From NCBI GenBank assembly GCA_963755215.1, contig CAVWIW010000014.1, forward strand, positions 14,347 to 78,346: a stretch of DNA of 64,000 bases. The letters run 5' to 3'. Below are positions 5,056-16,693 of the stretch, piece after piece (the first letter of the stretch is position 1; each line of letters opens with the position of its first letter). This stretch comes from an uncultured Thermoleophilaceae bacterium. Its GTDB lineage: Bacteria; Actinomycetota; Thermoleophilia; Solirubrobacterales; Thermoleophilaceae. Both the position numbers and the translations under genes were made by a program. Under the pieces are notes generated by a model. It saw nothing but the letters and a program-made list of their open reading frames with translations, was not told where the DNA came from and did no database searches.

Positions 5056-6162
5056 CTAGCCAGGCCGTTCGAGCCTGCGTGAGCCGATGAAAGAGGCGAA
5101 CCTCGGGATGCGCGCCCAGACCGGGCCCAGGGCGCGTGGCGCGATCAGGCTCAGCGCGCCGAGCAGCACCACCAGGAGCACCGACGACGAGCCGCCCGGC
5201 GGGCCGGGAGCCGACGCGGCGGGCCGCGCCACGGCAGGCATCTCGAACGGGCCCGTGGACCCTTTACCCGCCTCGGGGTTCCGTCCCCGACGGGTATCCA
5301 GGCTGGGAGACGAGCGCTGCGAAGCAGTGGCCGCGAGGGGAACGGCGTACCCGGTCACCGGGCCCGCAGCTGCGGGGATACGGGCCGGTTTGAATGGCGC
5401 GCCGCCGCCCTGGACCTGGCGCGGCTCTGAGCGCCCCGCGGCGGGTGACGGCCCGCTCTGCTCGGGGGCGGTGCCCTGCGGACGGAGCCCATCCGGGGGC
5501 TGCACGGCGCCGCGTCGGGGCAGCTCGGAGGGGGTGCGCGCGGCGCCGTCCTTGCTCCGGTCACCGCGCGCCCCGGCCAGGCCTCCGCAATCCCAGTCCC
5601 AGTCCCACCTCCAGCCCGCGGCCGTGGCGGGTGGGGTCGCGGCGGGGTCGCACGTCCAGTCCCAGTCCCAGTCCCAGCAATCGGTGCCCACGAGCGGGCC
5701 GCTCGGCGCGCGGGCGCCGCCGCCGCTCCCCGTGAGCTGGACCACGTCCCCGTTGTCGCCGGGACTGAAGATTCGGATGTCCACGTTCACGTTCGCCGGT
5801 GGTCCAGCCGCCGTTGGTGGCTGCACGCTGCGTGCGTCCGGCTCGAGGGAGGGCGGGTCAGCGGTCGGCGCCACGGTCGGGGCCTCCCGGGCGGGCTCGG
5901 CCGCGGGTGCGGGCTCGGCCGGCGCGGTCGGGGGCGCGGTCGCTCCCCCACCGGCCGAGGCCTCCTCGGGACGATGCTGCTGCGACGGATCCAGCGCGGG
6001 GTCCGGCGCACCGTCCGGGGTCGCCGCCGGCGCGACGGCGCCGCCGGACCCGCCCGCGCTCGAGACCTCAGCGCTCGAAGGCTCAGGACATCCCATCGCG
6101 ATGGCCAGCGCGGCGAGAAAGCCGGCGACCATCCTGAGAGCGTTGCTTGGCGTGCTTGCCAT
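5056..6162 (-). CDS. exported (possible lipoprotein) Pro-rich protein with SPGD motif, WDWDWDW blocks and C-terminal hydrophobic anchor
   Basis: 368-aa ORF. N-terminus MASTPSNALRMVAGFLAALAIAMGC looks like a signal with a lipobox-like AMGC. It has one copy of NVNVDIRIFSPGDNGDVVQ, the blocks CWDWDWDWTC and WRWDWDWDC, and C-terminal SSVLLVVLLGALSLIAPR followed by basic residues. Confidence 0.65.
   Translation of the reverse strand: MASTPSNALRMVAGFLAALAIAMGCPEPSSAEVSSAGGSGGAVAPAATPDGAPDPALDPSQQHRPEEASAGGGATAPPTAPAEPAPAAEPAREAPTVAPTADPPSLEPDARSVQPPTAAGPPANVNVDIRIFSPGDNGDVVQLTGSGGGARAPSGPLVGTDCWDWDWDWTCDPAATPPATAAGWRWDWDWDCGGLAGARGDRSKDGAARTPSELPRRGAVQPPDGLRPQGTAPEQSGPSPAAGRSEPRQVQGGGAPFKPARIPAAAGPVTGYAVPLAATASQRSSPSLDTRRGRNPEAGKGSTGPFEMPAVARPAASAPGPPGGSSSVLLVVLLGALSLIAPRALGPVWARIPRFASFIGSRRLERPG
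5592..5677. repeat. two blocks of hexanucleotide (CCCAGT)n repeats encoding the W-D repeats
   Basis: Block 5592..5607 and block 5655..5677 are tandem CCCAGT units on the + strand (ACTGGG = W-D on the coding strand). They are in frame. Confidence 0.7.
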
Positions 6163-7250
6163 GGCAGTTCACCCGACAAGTACCGGCGAAACGCAGCCCC
6201 GGGCGAAATTCCCCGCGCCAGAGGCCGATATCGGAGATACTGCGGGGCGATATCGCGCCCTCCCGTCAAGGAAGGAGGGGGGTCTTCACGAAACAGCAGC
6301 TCAGCAGTGAGCGCGCGACGGCCACGGGCCGCCTCCTCACGGCCTACCGCGAGGAAGGCGACATCCGCGCGCGTGACCGGCTCATCCAGCTCTACATGCC
6401 GCTCGTCGAGACGCTTGCCCGCCGGCACGGCCGTCGCGGGGCGGAGCTCGAGGACCTCGTGCAGGTGGGCTCGATCGGCCTGCTCAAAGCGATCGACCGC
6501 TTCGATCCCCGCAAGGGCGAGGAGCTCACGGCCTACGCAGTCCCGACGATCTCCGGTGAGATCAAGCGCCACCTGCGCGACCGGGGGCGAGGCGACCCGG
6601 CCGCGCTGGAGCAGGCAGGGGCCTTGAGCCATCGCGGGGAGGCCGACGCCGAGCCCGAGTCCGAGGTGGACGACCGGATCCTGCTGGCCGGCGCGTTCGA
6701 GGCGCTCGACGACACGGAGCGAAAGGTCATCTACCTGCGCTACATCCGCGAGCGGAGCCGGCGCGACACCGCGAAGGAGCTCGGGATGACGGACGATCGG
6801 CTGCGCAGGAGCACGCAGGCCGCGCTCGCCAAGCTGCGCGGAGAGCTCGAGCGGGGCGCCCTCCCGGCTCCGACCCGGGAAGCGCCCGCGCCGCTGGCAC
6901 CCAGCGAGCGCCCGCCGGAGCCTGGTCCCGCCCCGGCACCCGTCGCGGAGCCCGCCAGGGACCGCAACGGCGGTTCGCACAGCGGCCGGCTGCTGGTCCG
7001 GATGCCGCAGTCCCTGCACGACGAGCTCGCCAGCGCGGCGGAGGGCGACCGCGTGAGCCTGAACCAGTTCATCACCAATGCACTGGCGTCAGCCGTCGGA
7101 TGGAACCAGCCGCGGAGCCCGGAGCCGCCGCCGAGCGAGCCGCAGCCACCCCGGCTGCTGCGGGCGGCGATCGTGACGAACATCGTCGTGCTCGCGCTGG
7201 CCGGAGTCGCGGCGCTGCTCCTGCTGGTGGCCTGGCAGCAGGGCTGGTAA
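6147..7250 (+). CDS. sigma-70 family factor (regions 2 and 4 only) fused to a ribbon-helix-helix (HicB/Arc-like) domain and a C-terminal transmembrane helix
   Basis: Region 2 motifs LEDLVQVGSIGLLKAIDRFDP and PTISGEIKRHLRD. Region 4 ALDDTERKVIYLRYIRERSRRDTAKELGMTDDRLRRSTQAALAKLR. RHH-like SGRLLVRMPQSLHDELASAAEGDRVSLNQFITNALASAVGW (about 6981-7103). TM AAIVTNIVVLALAGVAALLLLVAW (about 7164-7235). The start is uncertain: the only in-frame canonical starts are TTG 6147/6156, and the strong SD GGAAGGAGGGGGG at 6270-6282 has no canonical start after it. Confidence 0.75.
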   Translation: MACLPWQFTRQVPAKRSPGRNSPRQRPISEILRGDIAPSRQGRRGVFTKQQLSSERATATGRLLTAYREEGDIRARDRLIQLYMPLVETLARRHGRRGAELEDLVQVGSIGLLKAIDRFDPRKGEELTAYAVPTISGEIKRHLRDRGRGDPAALEQAGALSHRGEADAEPESEVDDRILLAGAFEALDDTERKVIYLRYIRERSRRDTAKELGMTDDRLRRSTQAALAKLRGELERGALPAPTREAPAPLAPSERPPEPGPAPAPVAEPARDRNGGSHSGRLLVRMPQSLHDELASAAEGDRVSLNQFITNALASAVGWNQPRSPEPPPSEPQPPRLLRAAIVTNIVVLALAGVAALLLLVAWQQGW

Positions 7251-8258
7251 GCCGCCGGCTACCCGATCGCGCGCCAGCGCTCGGGGTCCTCGCCGTCCAG
7301 CTTCTCGCGCACCGCCGCCGAGCTCGAGGTGACGCAGGTAGCACAGCGTCTCCGACAGGCCCCAGTTGAGGAGCATCGGCGTGAGCTCCTCCACGCCCAG
7401 CAGGCGGGGAACGATCTCGTAAGGGGTGCGGGGCTCGTCGGAGATGGCAGCGCGCACCCGCTCGACCCGCTCATGCACCGCCGAGCGGTTGGCCTCGATC
7501 AGGCCCGGCGCGTCGCGCACCGGGCGGCCGTGCCCCGCCAGCACCAGGTCCACGTCGAGGCCGGCGACGGTGTCGAGGCTGCGCAGGAACTCGCCCGCCG
7601 GGTCGGGCGTCCAGCCGAAGTCGTAGTAGAGGGAGACGCGCCCAATGATGTGGTCGCCCGACAGAAGCAGACGCCGCTCCGGCTGATGCAGGACCACGTG
7701 CGACGGAGCGTGCCCCGGCGTTTCGTAGACGCGCCAGGTGCCCAGGTCGGTTTCCACCTCCACCCCGTCCAACAGCTCGCGGTCGGGCGGCACCACGTCG
7801 GCGATGCCGATCCCCTGCGCCTGGCGCGCCTCTCGGTAGCGCTCCATGGTGGGGCCGGGTACGCCGCTGTGCAGCGCCACCTCGATGCGGCGCTCGAGCT
7901 GGCGGTCGGGGTCGGCCGCGGCCGTGGTCATGTGCCGGTGGTCGGGGTGCATCCACAGCTCGCAGCCGGCCCGCTCCACGATTGGCGCAGCCAGCCCGTA
8001 GTGGTCGCTGTGCGCGTGCGTGCAAACCACCAGGCGCACGTGCTCGAGCCCCATGCCGGCCTGGTCGAGCGCCAGCTCGAGCTGTGCGAGGGAGCCGGGC
8101 TCGTGCATCCCGGTGTCCACGAGCACCACGCCGCTCCCCGCCGCGATCGCGAACGCGTTCACGTGCGGCACGCCCGGCCACGGCAGCGGCAGGCGCAGCC
8201 GCCACAGGCCGGGCAGCACGCGGTCGGCCCGGGCCAGCTCGCGCTTGCGCCCGCTCAT
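7089..8258 (-). CDS. MBL-fold metallo-hydrolase
   Basis: ATG at 8258 overlaps the upstream stop (ATGA). Motifs CTHAHSDHYG and ETPGHAPSHV. The open frame runs to 7089, overlapping the sigma gene by 162 nt. A more family-like C-terminus (AAVREKLDGEDPERWRAIG, stop at 7259) lies in another frame, so a frame break near 7305 is likely. Confidence 0.75.
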   Translation of the reverse strand: MSGRKRELARADRVLPGLWRLRLPLPWPGVPHVNAFAIAAGSGVVLVDTGMHEPGSLAQLELALDQAGMGLEHVRLVVCTHAHSDHYGLAAPIVERAGCELWMHPDHRHMTTAAADPDRQLERRIEVALHSGVPGPTMERYREARQAQGIGIADVVPPDRELLDGVEVETDLGTWRVYETPGHAPSHVVLHQPERRLLLSGDHIIGRVSLYYDFGWTPDPAGEFLRSLDTVAGLDVDLVLAGHGRPVRDAPGLIEANRSAVHERVERVRAAISDEPRTPYEIVPRLLGVEELTPMLLNWGLSETLCYLRHLELGGGAREAGRRGPRALARDRVAGGLPALLPGHQQEQRRDSGQREHDDVRHDRRPQQPGWLRLARRRLRAPRLVPSDG

Positions 8259-9864
8259 GGGTCGATCAGCACACCGGGGTTGAGCATGCCGGCGGGGTCC
8301 AGCTCGCGCTTGGCCGCCCGCAGGGCCGATGCGAACACGTCCGGGCGCTGGCGGTCGTACCAGGGGCGGTGATCGCGGCCCACCGCGTGGTGGTGGGTGA
8401 TCGTGCCGCCGGCTGCCACGATCGCCTCCGAGGCGGCCTCCTTGACCTCCTGCCACTGCTCCAGCTCGAGCCCGCGGCGTGCCGGAGCGAGGACGGTGAA
8501 GTAGGGCGCGGCGCCGTCGGGGTAGGCGTGGGTGAGGCGGCAGGTCACGCGCCCTTCGCCGAGCGCCTCACGCGCGGCGCCGCCGACGGACGCCACGAAC
8601 TCATCGAACGCGTCCCAGGTGATCGCCGTCTCGAACGTCTCGGCCAGGACACCGGCGGCCACCATCGTGTCGCGCAGGTAGGGCGCGCGCAGGAACGCGT
8701 CTCGCCACGAGCCCTCCGCGACGCCGCGCTCGCCCTCCCCCGCCTCGGGCCCGCGCAGGCGAGGCTCTCCGCTGGGGCTGCCCCCGTGATCGCCGCAGAG
8801 CTCCAGCGCGCGCGCCAGCCAGGCGTCGAGGGGATGGTCCGCCGACTCGAAGCCGAGGACCAACACTGCGCGCCCGGCGGCCGACGCGCCGGTGAGCTCG
8901 GCCTCGGCCGGGTCCAGCAGGCGGCAGTTGGAGGGCGAGAGCCCCGACTGCGCCAGGTCGCGCACGGCGCCCGCTCCAGCCTCGAAGCGTCTCGAACTCC
9001 AGGTCGGCGGCAGCCCTGAAGGGCGGCCGTGGCCGCACCCTCACCCAGGCCTCTGTGATCACCCCGAGGATCCCCTCCGAGCCGATCAGCATCCGGTCCG
9101 GACTGGGCCCCGCGCCCGACGCGGGCAGCCGGCGGCTCTGCCACTCGCCGGCCGGCGTGATCGCCCGGACCGACTGCACCAGGTCGTCGATGTGCGTCGG
9201 CCCGGTGGCGAAGTGACCGCCCGCGCGCGTGGCGATCCACCCGCCTAGCGTCGAGTACTCGAACGACTGGGGGAAGTGGCGCAGCGTCAGGCCGTGGGAT
9301 CTCAGCTGCTCCTCCAGCTCGGGGCCGGTTGCGCCCGCCTGGATCAGCGCCGTCTGGGAGGTGGCGTCGACCTCCAGGACCCGGTCCAGGGCGCGTAGGT
9401 CGAGCGTGACCACAGGCCGGTCGCCCAGGTCGCGCGCCTCGACCCCGCCGCACACGCTCGTGCCGCCGCCGAACGGAACCACGGCCGCGCCGGCTCCCTC
9501 GCACCAGTCCAGCACCCGCTCCACGTCGGCCTCGGCCTGCGGCCGCGCCACCACGTCGGGCGGCTCGGGGAAGTCGCCGCGGAAGCCGCGCACGACGTCG
9601 CGGTAGGCCTTGCCCAGCGCGTGCGACGCGCGCTCGTGGGCATCCGACAAGCAGATGGCTGCCAGTGCCGCCGGAGGCGTCTACCCGCGGCGCCCGCAGC
9701 GTCACGTCGTCCAAGGGCACCGGGCGCTCCACCTCCGCCGCGCCGAACCCCAGGTGCTCGCGGAGGCCGCGCGCGGCCGCCTCGACCTCCTCGTGGGGCG
9801 GCTGCTGGTCCTCGTATCCCCAGCCCCAGTGCTTGAGCCTGCGCGTGCCCTCGATCACACCCAT
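8255..9864 (-). pseudogene. FAD-linked oxidase (alkyl-DHAP-synthase/GlcD-like), split over three frames
   Basis: The N-terminus (LKHWGWGYED), the FAD-binding part (VVPFGGGTSVCGG, EGILGVITEAW) and the C-terminus (GGTITHHHAVGRDH...MLNPGVLIDP) lie in three different frames. The junctions are near 9678 and 8988. Confidence 0.8.
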
Positions 9865-14231: not shown

Positions 14232-16693
14232 TGGGCCGCTGGGCCGTCTTGGGGCTCGCGGCCCTGGCCGCCTCTGCGCCCGCGCCGGCCGCCGCCGGCG
14301 AGCCGTTCTTCCTGGAGGCGAAGGCGGGTCCGTGGACCGCCACGCTGGACACCGCGCCCGACGTGTTCCGGCTCAGCCAGAGCGGCGCGGGTCGCCTGGC
14401 CGCAGCCGTGAGCGTCCGCACGGCTTCGGGGTGGGTCCAGGCCACGGGCACGAGCCGAGAGCGGCGCGCGGGGCGCTCGATCGTGGCGACCGTCCAGACG
14501 GCGCAGCCCGGCCTGACCCTCGCCCTGCGCGTCACGCCGTCCGCGGGCGGGGCCACGGGCGTCACGCTCTCGGCCCCCGGCTCCGCGCTGGAGACGAGGA
14601 TGGCCTTCCAGGCGCCCGCGGGCGAGCGCTTCTGGGGCTTCGGGCAGCGCTCGAACGGGGTGGACCAGCGCGGCCGCGAGGTCGAGAACTACGTGTCGGA
14701 CGGGCCCTTCCGCGAGCCGGATCGCTCGCTTGCGGCGGTGCTGGTGCCGCCGTGGGCCACACGCGACCGCGACGACTCCACGTACTACCCGGTGCCGTGG
14801 ATGCTCTCGAGCCGGGGCTACGGGGTGCTCATCGACGAGGACGTGCGCAGTGCGTTCCGGCTGGGCGTGGACCGGCGCGACACCTGGAGCCTGCAGGCCG
14901 ATGGCGCGCGGCTGCGCGCGCGCTTCTTCGCGGGGCCGACGCCCGGGGCCGCGCTGGCGCGCTTCACCCGCGCGGTCGGGCGCCAGCCCCCGCCGCCCGC
15001 GCCGTGGGCCTTCGGCCCGTGGTTTCAGACGGGCCAGCCCAACGTGATCCCGCTGGCCGACGAGGCGCGCATCACGCAAACGCTGCGCAACGCCGACGCC
15101 CCGGTGTCGGCGGCCGAGACACAGATGCACTACCTGCCCTGCGGGGCGCAGCGCGGCAACCGCGACTACCTGCGCCGGCGCAACCGCTTCTTCCACGCCC
15201 AGGGCCTGGCCCACCTGGCCTACTTCAACCCGGCCCTGTGCGAGTCATATGCCTCCGTCTACCAGCGCGCCGGGGCCCTCGGGCTGCTGCAGAAGCGCGC
15301 CGAGGACGGCCGTCCGTTCCTGTACTCGGCGTTCGTGGGCGGCAGCGGCCCGGCCGGTTTCACACGCGAGCCGCTGGCCCAGTTCGACTTCACGGCGCGC
15401 GGCACCGAGTCCTTCTACGCCGGGCTGGTGCGGGAGGCCGTTGCGGCCGGGCATGACGGCTGGATGGAGGACTTCGGCGAGAACAGCCCGCCGCAGGCGG
15501 TGTCGGCCGATGGCAGCGACGGCGACGAGGTCCACAACCGCTACCCGCGGCTCTACCACTGCGCCGTCCAGCGGATAGCGCGGGGACTGCCGAAGCCGGT
15601 CGTGCGCTTCCAGCGATCGGGATGGACGGGCGCAGCGCGCTGCGCGGACCTGGTCTGGGGCGGCGACCCCACCACGGTCTGGGGCTTCGACGGCCTGTGG
15701 TCCTCGGTGCGGCAGGCGCTCAGCATCGGCATGTCGGGGGTCAGCCGCTGGGGCTCGGACATCGGCGGCTACAACAGCTTCAACGAGCGCGAGCGGCTCA
15801 CGCCCGAGTTGCTCAAGCGCTGGATCCAGTTCGGCGCCGTGTCCGGCGTCATGCGCACCAAGCGCTCGGGCATCGCGCTGCCCTCCTACGAGCGCCCGCA
15901 GATCTTCGATCCCGGCGTGCTGCCCACCTGGCGCCGCTACGCGAAGCTGCACACCCAGCTTCACCCCTACCTGCTCGCCGCCGATCGCCGCTATCGCCGG
16001 ACCGGGCTGCCGCTAATGAGCCATCTGGCGCTCAACTGGCCGCGCGACCGCCGCTCGCTCGCGCGCGAGGACGAGTTCATGTTCGGGCCCAGCCTCCTGG
16101 CTGCTCCGGTGGTCACGCCCGGCGCGCGGCGCCGGCGGGTGTACGCCCCGCCAGGGCGCTGGCTGGACTTCTGGCGCAGCGTCCGTTACACCAAGCGCAG
16201 CGGAGCGTTCTCCGTCGGGCGGGTGCGCTCCGTTCGCGGCGGCCGCGAGCACGTACTCCCGGCGCCGCTCGAGCAGCTGCCGATGCTCGTCCGCACGGGT
16301 GCGGTGCTGCCGTTGCTGCCCGCGGACGTGGACACGCTCGCCGGCTTCGGGCGCCGCCGGGGCCTGGTCCACCTGCGCGACCGCCGCAACCGGATGACGC
16401 TGCTGGCCTTCCCGCGCGGGCGCACGCGAGCGTCCTTCAACGAGGGCGAGCGCCTGGTCTCCAAGGAGCGCCGCGCCTCCTGGTCGCTCGCCGTAGCCGG
16501 CAAGCGCCGGCGGGCCTACCGGGTCCAGGCTTCCCTGGCCACCCTGCGGCGGCCGTTCAGGCCGTGCGCGGTGTCGGTGGGCGGGGGAGCCTCGCGGCGG
16601 GTCGCCTGGAGCTACTCCAGCCGGACCCGCGTGCTGCGGGCGCGCTTCGTCGCCCGGCTCGGAACGCTGACCGTGCGCGCCTGCCGCCGCTAG
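14231..16693 (+). CDS. glycoside hydrolase family 31 (secreted alpha-glucosidase/xylosidase-like)
   Basis: GTG at 14231 shares one base with the kgd TAG. Signal-like VGRWAVLGLAALAASAPAPAAAG. GH31 motifs GWMEDFGE and DLVWGGDPTTVW. Confidence 0.85.
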   Translation: MGRWAVLGLAALAASAPAPAAAGEPFFLEAKAGPWTATLDTAPDVFRLSQSGAGRLAAAVSVRTASGWVQATGTSRERRAGRSIVATVQTAQPGLTLALRVTPSAGGATGVTLSAPGSALETRMAFQAPAGERFWGFGQRSNGVDQRGREVENYVSDGPFREPDRSLAAVLVPPWATRDRDDSTYYPVPWMLSSRGYGVLIDEDVRSAFRLGVDRRDTWSLQADGARLRARFFAGPTPGAALARFTRAVGRQPPPPAPWAFGPWFQTGQPNVIPLADEARITQTLRNADAPVSAAETQMHYLPCGAQRGNRDYLRRRNRFFHAQGLAHLAYFNPALCESYASVYQRAGALGLLQKRAEDGRPFLYSAFVGGSGPAGFTREPLAQFDFTARGTESFYAGLVREAVAAGHDGWMEDFGENSPPQAVSADGSDGDEVHNRYPRLYHCAVQRIARGLPKPVVRFQRSGWTGAARCADLVWGGDPTTVWGFDGLWSSVRQALSIGMSGVSRWGSDIGGYNSFNERERLTPELLKRWIQFGAVSGVMRTKRSGIALPSYERPQIFDPGVLPTWRRYAKLHTQLHPYLLAADRRYRRTGLPLMSHLALNWPRDRRSLAREDEFMFGPSLLAAPVVTPGARRRRVYAPPGRWLDFWRSVRYTKRSGAFSVGRVRSVRGGREHVLPAPLEQLPMLVRTGAVLPLLPADVDTLAGFGRRRGLVHLRDRRNRMTLLAFPRGRTRASFNEGERLVSKERRASWSLAVAGKRRRAYRVQASLATLRRPFRPCAVSVGGGASRRVAWSYSSRTRVLRARFVARLGTLTVRACRR

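Follow-up and report, generated by a model that had tools for sequence, protein, structure and literature searches.

The 64-kb window analyzed here (the whole stretch of 64,000 nucleotides at positions 14,347 to 78,346 of contig CAVWIW010000014.1, assembly GCA_963755215.1, from an uncultured Thermoleophilaceae bacterium) carries a gene that combines a SigB/F-type sigma factor, a ribbon-helix-helix (RHH) domain, and a C-terminal transmembrane (TM) helix in a single polypeptide. We lean toward the view that this sigma-RHH-TM protein is a conserved one-polypeptide regulator of the Thermoleophilia, anchored by its tail in the membrane, translated from an ACG codon, and held as a tethered pro-sigma factor. 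This view draws upon the domain architecture and its conservation, the coexistence of fused and unfused forms, the synteny of the locus, the absence of usable canonical start codons, and the geometry of the ACG codon and its Shine-Dalgarno (SD) sequence. It would entail insertion into the membrane, inhibition of the sigma factor, proteolytic release, binding of an operator, and a regulon encoded nearby.

A SigB/F-like sigma core fused to a ribbon-helix-helix domain and a predicted tail anchor

In the 367-amino-acid (aa) open reading frame (ORF), Pfam places Sigma70_r2 at aa 79 to 148 (E = 2.7e-20), Sigma70_r4 with the region 4.2 helix-turn-helix at aa 183 to 231 (E = 7.5e-8), and HicB (PF05534) at aa 278 to 313 (E = 3.2e-9; 37 bits against a cut-off of 21). 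The protein has no Pfam match to Sigma70_r3 (PF04539), to Sigma70_ECF (PF07638), or to the HicB_lk_antitox/UPF0150 N-terminal domain. Among NCBIfam models, the best is the SigB/F/G model TIGR02980, with SigF and SigB next; the preliminary description of this gene had called region 2 SigB/F-like. Each of them matches in two stretches and below its cut-off; for TIGR02980, the score is 134.8 bits against a curated cut-off of 234.35, with the sigma-2 part matching positions 3 to 76, and the shortfall is attributable to the missing region 3. The score for TIGR02937 is 97.4 against a cut-off of 42.9.

The AlphaFold2 (AF2) model, built with a 73-sequence alignment, has a mean predicted local distance difference test (pLDDT) score of 79, with confident sigma-2 and sigma-4 helices, low-confidence linkers, two RHH helices (residues 241 to 253 and 258 to 269), and a terminal helix (residues 290 to 317). 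The sole strongly hydrophobic segment spans residues 295 to 313 counted from the ACG (mean Kyte-Doolittle value of 2.69, against 0.86 for the runner-up segment). Few residues remain after this helix, and the protein ends in ...LLLLVAWQQGW. A single helix at the extreme C terminus and the lack of a signal peptide are the features of a tail-anchored membrane protein, and insertion into the membrane is predicted. Pfam, profile searches, AF2, and hydropathy thus bear out the order of domains that had been read from the DNA (sigma-2, sigma-4, RHH, and C-terminal TM helix, with sigma-3 missing).

The RHH similarity also holds in profile searches. Besides the PF05534 match, a PDB search with a profile that combined the C-terminal module with 36 free-standing relatives returned RHH proteins exclusively (AmrZ, Mnt, Arc, VapB26, and EndoAI), with weak E values of 0.02 to 0.25; phmmer found no match in the PDB when the RHH segment was used as a single-sequence query. 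Residues R234, L236, R238, and N259 align with K18, V20, R22, and N43 of AmrZ, and in the AmrZ-DNA crystal structure the first three of these read bases while N43 positions R22 (PMC3325190). S232, G233, R234, R238, H244, S257, and N259 are invariant across the 73 family sequences, and the R/L/R base-contact positions and the helix-2 Asn are unchanged in both the fused and the free forms. In family alignments, few parts of the protein are as well conserved as the RHH strand, the RHH helices, and the TM helix, the last of these with the motif PRWLxAAxVTNIVVV...LLxVAxxQG and its conserved Asn. This Asn is nearly invariant, within ..VTNIVVV.. in the fusions and ..NLVVV.. in the free RHH-TM proteins. 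A polar residue kept inside a TM helix suggests a feature for helix-helix pairing or protease recognition, and we take it that such an Asn would suit intramembrane cleavage or the pairing of helices.

The architecture had been called unusual, which is not so within this lineage: all 120 of the top database relatives carry region 2, region 4, and HicB, and 82 of them also have a Pfam match to region 3. The source names of these top relatives are “sigma-B factor” and Thermoleophilaceae metagenome-assembled genomes (MAGs). A scan of species-representative genomes and metagenomes yielded 159 loci in MAGs of Thermoleophilaceae, Solirubrobacteraceae, and Gaiellaceae, among them a 97%-identical Thermoleophilaceae locus (L003). 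In the fetched loci, the RHH motif lies within the sigma ORF in 50 cases (Thermoleophilaceae and Solirubrobacteraceae metagenomes) and in a separate ORF that starts just past the sigma stop codon in 42, mostly Gaiellaceae. Because the same fusion recurs in about 50 loci of independent assemblies, the concern that an indel had artificially merged a sigma gene with a separate RHH-TM gene is excluded.

Examples of the unfused state are a 269-aa sigma factor followed by a 112-aa RHH-TM gene (L162) and a sigma gene followed by a 193-aa gene for the HicB N-domain, RHH, and TM helix (L160). An exhaustive search with the 100-residue RHH-TM module recovered 654 representative proteins, 182 of them below 1e-10, in three length classes: free RHH-TM proteins of about 105 to 125 aa, proteins with the HicB N-domain, RHH, and TM helix of about 175 to 210 aa, and sigma fusions of 300 to 470 aa, some of which hold the HicB N-domain between sigma-4 and RHH. 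This N-domain (UPF0150/HicB_lk_antitox) is found in the distant fused proteins P0136, P0140, P0153, and P0189 and in the free proteins P0137, P0142, P0143, and P0165. In one 1,022-aa protein (P0187), the N-terminal third of the RHH-TM query is matched in 17 separate stretches; it has no Pfam family besides a sub-threshold DUF441 and may be a low-complexity or repeat artifact.

The coexistence of fused and adjacent but separate states indicates that the fusion joined the sigma factor to a conserved downstream partner, and comparison of the loci makes it likely that an operon of sigma and a hicB-like TM gene came first, followed by fusion and then by loss of the HicB N-domain. Anti-sigma factors are classically encoded directly downstream of their sigma genes, where the separate RHH-TM genes also lie, and the stable fusion of immediate neighbors suggests that sigma and RHH-TM probably act together when they are separate. 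The earlier idea that the C-terminal part serves as the regulatory partner of the sigma factor gains support from the separate downstream RHH-TM genes of Gaiellaceae and others. A literature search found nothing on sigma-HicB/RHH fusions or on membrane-anchored RHH partners of sigma factors.

The Pfam HicB match, together with the HicB N-domain retained in distant fused and free relatives, could also mean that the RHH-TM part is a domesticated or decayed HicB antitoxin that was fused by accident and has no role in sigma control. We regard this as very improbable. The association with a SigB/F-type sigma factor, fused or adjacent, extends to 92 loci in several families, and the RHH and TM parts would not be expected from this explanation to rank among the most conserved of the protein. 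Nor is there room for hicA beside the window gene, the only one for which this was considered: its flanks are taken by the divergent gene SRP1 (start at 6162) and a convergent metallo-beta-lactamase (MBL)-fold gene (end at 7259), and no hicA is found there.

The loss of sigma-3 appears to be recent. In the window protein, 38 aa separate the end of region 2.4 from region 4.1, and this spacing is bimodal among 70 aligned relatives (80 to 99 aa in 57 and 20 to 38 aa in 13). Compared with P0005, about 43 residues are missing, and what is left there is an acidic 3.2-like linker. P0005 (locus L002) is the closest sigma-3-bearing relative and is nearer to the window protein than the other short forms are, which points to a recent deletion of regions 3.0 and 3.1 in the window lineage; by the alignments, the deletion has apparently happened at least once more elsewhere. 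The outcome is, as far as sequence similarity can tell, a two-domain sigma factor that resembles the extracytoplasmic function (ECF) type but is of group 3 (SigB/F/G branch) descent. Since the closest models are SigB/F/G and close relatives have sigma-3, the two-domain state represents a secondary loss and not ECF ancestry.

The translation start

As previously described, the SD sequence GGAAGGAGG, with its run of six G residues, is followed in frame by GTC TTC ACG, and the only in-frame ATG, GTG, or TTG codons are the TTG codons at 6147 and 6156 and the ATG at 6396. Both alternatives proposed on that basis, a TTG start or the ATG of MPLVE, are rejected here, and the best candidate is the ACG at 6288, which lies 9 nt after GGAGG. 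Translation from this codon is probable on the comparative evidence.

The conserved ATGRLLxAY motif served to anchor the loci, and the codon that precedes it by 11 positions was compared. In 10 distinct sequences from at least five clades (the window with L001, L002, and L003; L005, L008, and L011 with L016; L086 and L093 with L091 and L094; L092; and L098), codon -11 is ACG and no ATG, GTG, or TTG is available. An in-frame TGA stands zero to four codons before the ACG in L002, L011, L086, L091, L092, L093, and L094. For example, L002 (60% identity) reads TGA AGG GGT GTC TCC ACG, with the stop four codons before the ACG, and L011 reads GAT TGA ACG, with the stop directly before it. Nine distinct sequences have ATG at the homologous site, L025 has CTG, and L012 has ATT; for example, GTC ATG GCC CGA CGC TTC CGC in L096 corresponds to CTC ACG ACC CGA CGC TTT CGC in L098. 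At the protein level, the N terminus of the window protein, TKQQLSSERATATGRLL, aligns with that of P0104, MGQQTRSERETATGRLL. In the ACG-type loci examined, a purine-rich SD sequence with complementarity to the 16S 3′ end, GGAGG or GGGGTGA, precedes the ACG by 6 to 9 nt. A near-cognate codon is thus apparently conserved at proper SD spacing, where canonical starts cannot explain the conserved N terminus.

The GC fractions at codon positions 1, 2, and 3 are.78,.52, and.91 from 6288 on and.60,.62, and.72 for 6147 to 6287. The coding pattern is typical from 6288 on, and the stretch before it lacks a coding GC signature. This bears upon the annotated ORF, in which a start at TTG 6147 or 6156 would add a 47-residue N-terminal extension. 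The frame is open from 6147, and one public call (P0001, 367 aa) uses a TTG start. However, GC by codon position is flat over 6147 to 6287, this stretch overlaps the start of the divergent gene and conserved promoter boxes, no relative has a homologous N-terminal extension, and the in-frame TGA codons of L002 and L011 leave no room for one. In addition, P0002, which is 98% identical, reads ...ALPSRKEGVFTKQQ (...SRKEGVFTKQQ) upstream, corresponding to the other frame of the window with one G fewer. The frame upstream of the G run is therefore not conserved, and the length of the run varies between strains, a G5/G6 difference that is deduced from the protein frames alone. A TTG start is hardly credible on these grounds.

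The ATG at 6396 is the first canonical start past the SD sequence, and gene callers picked internal starts of this kind for P0005 (“MQLYLPLVE”) and P0004 (“MHAIDRFDP”). A product that begins there would lack regions 1.2/2.1 and would not be a functional sigma factor; equally, the gene might be decaying. Either case is very unlikely, because the ATG is not conserved (Phe in L001 and Leu in L002), whereas the 36 codons between ACG and ATG are conserved as protein, with synonymous changes between the window and L001, bear the coding signature of GC at the third codon position, and encode an N-terminal segment present in all relatives.

Some observations argue against initiation at ACG. Relatives with GTG, TTG, or ATG at positions -12 to -14 often also keep the ACG at -11, and part of its conservation could therefore be as a Thr residue; ACG accounts for 43% of Thr codons in the family, and ACC accounts for 44%. 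ACG is also a poor start codon: in Escherichia coli it initiates, with Met, at about 0.1 to 1% of the level of AUG, and in one ACG culture Thr was found at the N terminus besides Met (10.1101/063800). When about 1.1 Mb of related loci was crudely scanned for further SD-plus-ACG starts with upstream stops, 12 matches emerged, 7 of them in this family; the scan, which had low power, thus gave no sign of general ACG initiation in these genomes. The literature searched held nothing on native bacterial ACG starts.

Because L002, L011, and other loci have no G run, programmed frameshifting at this site was rejected as an explanation. Reinitiation after a mini-ORF is compatible with L092 and L086 but does not fit the window or L011. 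A mini-ORF of two or three codons that ends in TGA just before the ACG is present in L092 (near 3001), L086, and L093, with the sequences GTG AGC TGA ACG (L092) and ATG GGG TGA GAG CGG ACG, in which the TGA is part of the SD-like GGGGTGA; termination-reinitiation may operate in these three loci. The public calls for the ACG-type genes P0001, P0004, and P0005 are all wrong at the 5′ end. P0001 was extended to the far-upstream TTG, and P0005 (334 aa) and P0004 (249 aa) were cut back to an internal GTG or ATG, with loss of part of region 2.

The intergenic region and possible modes of action

The sigma gene and SRP1 are separated by 125 nt that contain conserved blocks (Table 1). Two CGATATCG boxes 22 nt apart bracket a -10-like hexamer, GATACT (6235 to 6240), which is TANNNT-like in relatives, and they are the only two occurrences in the window. 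Paired GRTAYC boxes at the same distance from the start are found in 19 distinct loci, against 0.8 expected from their density elsewhere in the loci, and in some clades the second box is a 12-bp palindrome, CCTGATATCAGG.

Closer to SRP1, the conserved block at 6168 to 6183 takes the form ..AAGTACCC.. in Thermoleophilaceae loci, and in Gaiellaceae loci it is AAATACCC (minus strand GGGTAT). On the SRP1 strand it reads GGGTAC(T), or GGGTAT in Gaiellaceae. We take GGGTAY to resemble the -10 element of actinobacterial SigB/SigF promoters, and this block may act as a promoter for the divergent gene. In Gaiellaceae, GGATCA-N14-GGGTAT lies about 10 nt upstream of the GTG of the divergent SRP-like gene. 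The unfused Gaiellaceae sigma operons (L026 to L039, L110, L126, L135, and others) have a TTGAAT-N17-TACTGT sequence that ends 6 nt before the ATG, which looks like a sigma-70-like promoter of a leaderless transcript. A simple sigma-70 promoter scan found nothing, and Rfam returned nothing above noise.

In the tethered pro-sigma reading, the RHH domain would dimerize, and the tail anchor would keep the sigma factor at the membrane, either inactive or locally confined. A cut in the disordered linker or in the membrane would then free the sigma-2/sigma-4 fragment, which would transcribe the divergent SRP operon from its GGGTAY-type promoter. Binding of the RHH domain to the paired CGATATCG boxes around the -10 element of its own gene would provide negative feedback, and the ACG start would keep synthesis of the protein low. 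We favor a tether with cleavage because the nearest precedents are the ECF sigma/anti-sigma hybrids IutY (ECF243, Pseudomonas putida) and ECF48/52/53 (SCO4117, Streptomyces coelicolor), which are membrane-bound and proteolytically activated (PMC8999054).

Several results weigh against this. The C-terminal extension contains HicB/RHH alone, and an anti-sigma domain (ASD/ZAS) was not found in it. No syntenic protease gene is present among the called neighbors. No consistent -35 element (GTTT or GNNTN at 12 to 17 nt) lies upstream of GGGTAY in Thermoleophilaceae. Paired GATATC boxes were not found upstream of the unfused Gaiellaceae operons, where the RHH contact residues are equal. Finally, by its sequence the RHH domain looks competent for DNA binding and fits a repressor better than an anti-sigma factor. 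A role in DNA binding seems no less likely than a purely anti-sigma one, because the AmrZ contact residues are kept and paired palindromes lie in the promoter of the gene itself.

A somewhat unlikely alternative is that the protein works while tethered and is not released. Its RHH domain would bind the operator and deliver the sigma factor and RNA polymerase to the sigma-SRP intergenic region, so that the protein would repress one promoter in the manner of an antitoxin-style autorepressor and supply sigma locally for the other. ToxR and CadC are membrane-bound one-component regulators that such a protein would resemble. The invariance of the AmrZ-aligned R/L/R residues and helix-2 Asn in fused and free forms agrees with this alternative, as do the excess of paired palindromes around a -10-like hexamer and the restriction of CGATATCG in the window to the sigma promoter. 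The flexible linker of 45 to 70 aa provides reach, and the neighboring target genes encode exported proteins, such that the locus may sit at the membrane anyway. However, the missing boxes upstream of the unfused Gaiellaceae operons count against this alternative as well, and a sigma factor held to both membrane and operator might be hampered in promoter escape. The tethered pro-sigma reading, which we prefer, and action without release are not mutually exclusive.

More broadly, and only tentatively, tail-anchored RHH proteins, free or fused, could constitute a new class of membrane-bound, DNA-binding regulators of SigB/F-type sigma factors, with ACG selected as a throttle. This proposal, which we consider possible but rather doubtful, takes in translation of the fused gene from ACG in at least five lineages and a sigma factor that regulates itself.

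Neighboring genes and relation to known systems

Among the syntenic partners of the sigma gene, SRP2 is the most conserved. It lies upstream in divergent orientation in 45 loci, the unfused Gaiellaceae operons among them, and its homologs are all annotated as hypothetical. Its repeats follow the pattern ...Q.P.N.NISVRVLSPGD.G.V.Q.N.S.A...A.N.N...Q...Q.Q, with conserved Cys pairs, and it is more conserved than the sigma factor (99.7% in L003, 92% in L001, and 74% in L002). The AF2 model, of modest confidence, is all-beta with long beta-hairpins. A Foldseek search against the PDB gave no significant fold, with FapC/CsgA amyloids and beta-helices at an E value of >0.05 and a TM score of about 0.08. 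SRP1 adjoins the sigma gene in 23 loci. Its N terminus (…LAALAIAMGC) is lipoprotein-like, one region is rich in Pro and Ala, the SPGDNGDV motif occurs once, and Cys residues flank two Trp-Asp runs, DCWDWDWDWTCD and WRWDWDWDCGG.

On the other side, the downstream genes for the MBL-fold protein and a flavin adenine dinucleotide (FAD) oxidase are shared with the three closest relatives only. At about 7312, the window has one extra base, CTTCTCGCGCACC, compared with CTTCTC-CGCAC in L003, L001, and L002. It shifts the frame of the last ~20 to 25 codons of the MBL-fold gene, whose shifted ORF extends as far as 7089, antisense to the part of the sigma gene that encodes the RHH and TM regions. The extra base could be a genuine frameshift or an indel of the assembly, and it affects the trust to be placed in homopolymer lengths in the window.

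Table 1. Features of the sigma-RHH-TM locus, in coordinates of the window
Feature	Position	Strand	Basis or remark
SRP2, secreted four-repeat all-beta protein, 357 aa	3909..4982	-	No Pfam family; AF2 pLDDT of 62
SRP1, divergent secreted or lipoprotein-like protein	5056..6162	-	No Pfam family
Sigma-RHH-TM ORF, open frame as earlier described	6147..7250	+	367 aa from TTG 6147
Conserved block GGTACTTGTCGGGTGA with a GGGTAY-like candidate -10 of the SigB/F type and the SD of SRP1	6168..6183	-	
Two CGATATCG palindromes, candidate operator and core promoter of the sigma gene	6226..6255		Boxes at 6226-6233 and 6248-6255
SD sequence GGAAGGAGG and, between SD and start, a run of G (G6, 6277-6282)	6270..6282	+	Sequence
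ACG, proposed near-cognate initiation codon	6288..6290	+	Codon -11 from the ATGRLL motif
Coding sequence as proposed here for the sigma-RHH-TM protein	6288..7250	+	320 aa and TAA, ACG start
Sigma-70 region 2 (sigma-2 domain)	6381..6590	+	PF04542, E = 2.7e-20; AF2 helices with pLDDT of 85-97
Short sigma-2/sigma-4 linker, sigma-3 deleted	6591..6692	+	Alignment gap of ~43 residues versus P0005 and others
Sigma-70 region 4 (sigma-4 domain)	6693..6839	+	PF04545, E = 7.5e-8
Pro/Ala/Glu-rich disordered linker	6840..6977	+	Length and sequence vary in alignment; AF2 pLDDT of <50 at residues 223-236
HicB/Arc-type RHH domain, strand SGRLLVRMP and then two helices	6978..7085	+	PF05534, 37 bits
C-terminal TM helix (tail anchor), conserved Asn	7155..7238	+	Kyte-Doolittle value of 2.69; AF2 helix 290-317
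MBL-fold gene, convergent, ends at 7259	7259-8270	-	

The window protein shares with the ECF hybrids an N-terminal sigma-2/sigma-4 core, a C-terminal extension with a TM helix and a Pro-rich segment, derivation from a sigma gene fused with a downstream membrane partner, and proposed proteolysis. However, its core is SigB/F/G-like (group 3), and most of its relatives retain sigma-3; its extension is an RHH DNA-binding fold without a ZAS/ASD anti-sigma domain; and it has no extracytoplasmic sensor domain, as few residues follow the TM helix. With ECF group 4 it shares sigma-2 and sigma-4 joined by a short linker, although it lacks the ECF sequence signature (PF07638).

Regions 2 and 4 are most similar to those of SigB, SigF, and SigG (TIGR02980), which are controlled by partner switching (RsbW/RsbV and SpoIIAB/SpoIIAA). 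The window protein differs from them in its score below the family cut-off, its deleted sigma-3, and the lack of RsbW- or STAS-type genes among the called neighbors of relatives. Control is presumably exerted through the fused RHH-TM module instead of partner switching. With HicB, Arc, Mnt, CopG, and AmrZ it shares the RHH signature, the basic/hydrophobic/Arg pattern of the strand, and the S-x-N turn, and the paired palindromes over the promoter of its own gene resemble the antitoxin-type operator of RHH autorepressors. In contrast to HicB antitoxins, it is predicted to be membrane-anchored, is fused to a sigma factor, lacks the HicB N-domain, and has no HicA neighbor.

Weak non-AUG start codons (AUU, AUC, and CUG) are used by infC, which encodes initiation factor 3, and by other bacterial genes. 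Like infC, the window gene is a regulatory gene with a conserved, probable near-cognate start behind a good SD sequence, and by analogy its synthesis could be low and sensitive to initiation fidelity; its codon, ACG, lies outside the start codons of translation table 11. Membrane-tethered sigma hybrids and near-cognate starts are both already known, and the ACG start is the most surprising element of the system. If correct, it would document, by clean comparison among relatives, the native use of ACG as a bacterial start codon, with upstream in-frame stops and with ATG, ACG, and CTG alternating at one site. Gene finders cannot call such starts, and all of the public predictions seen for ACG-type genes are mis-started or truncated.

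For the biology of the family, the architecture would extend the fusion of a sigma factor with a membrane regulator, so far described for ECF sigma factors, to the SigB/F group. An RHH domain in the place of an anti-sigma domain would suggest a new coupling of membrane state, operator binding, and promoter selection. A group 3 sigma factor that repeatedly drops sigma-3 to arrive at an ECF-like layout would be a small-scale model for the origin of ECF sigma factors. The conserved divergent operon for secreted repeat proteins is the immediate candidate regulon.

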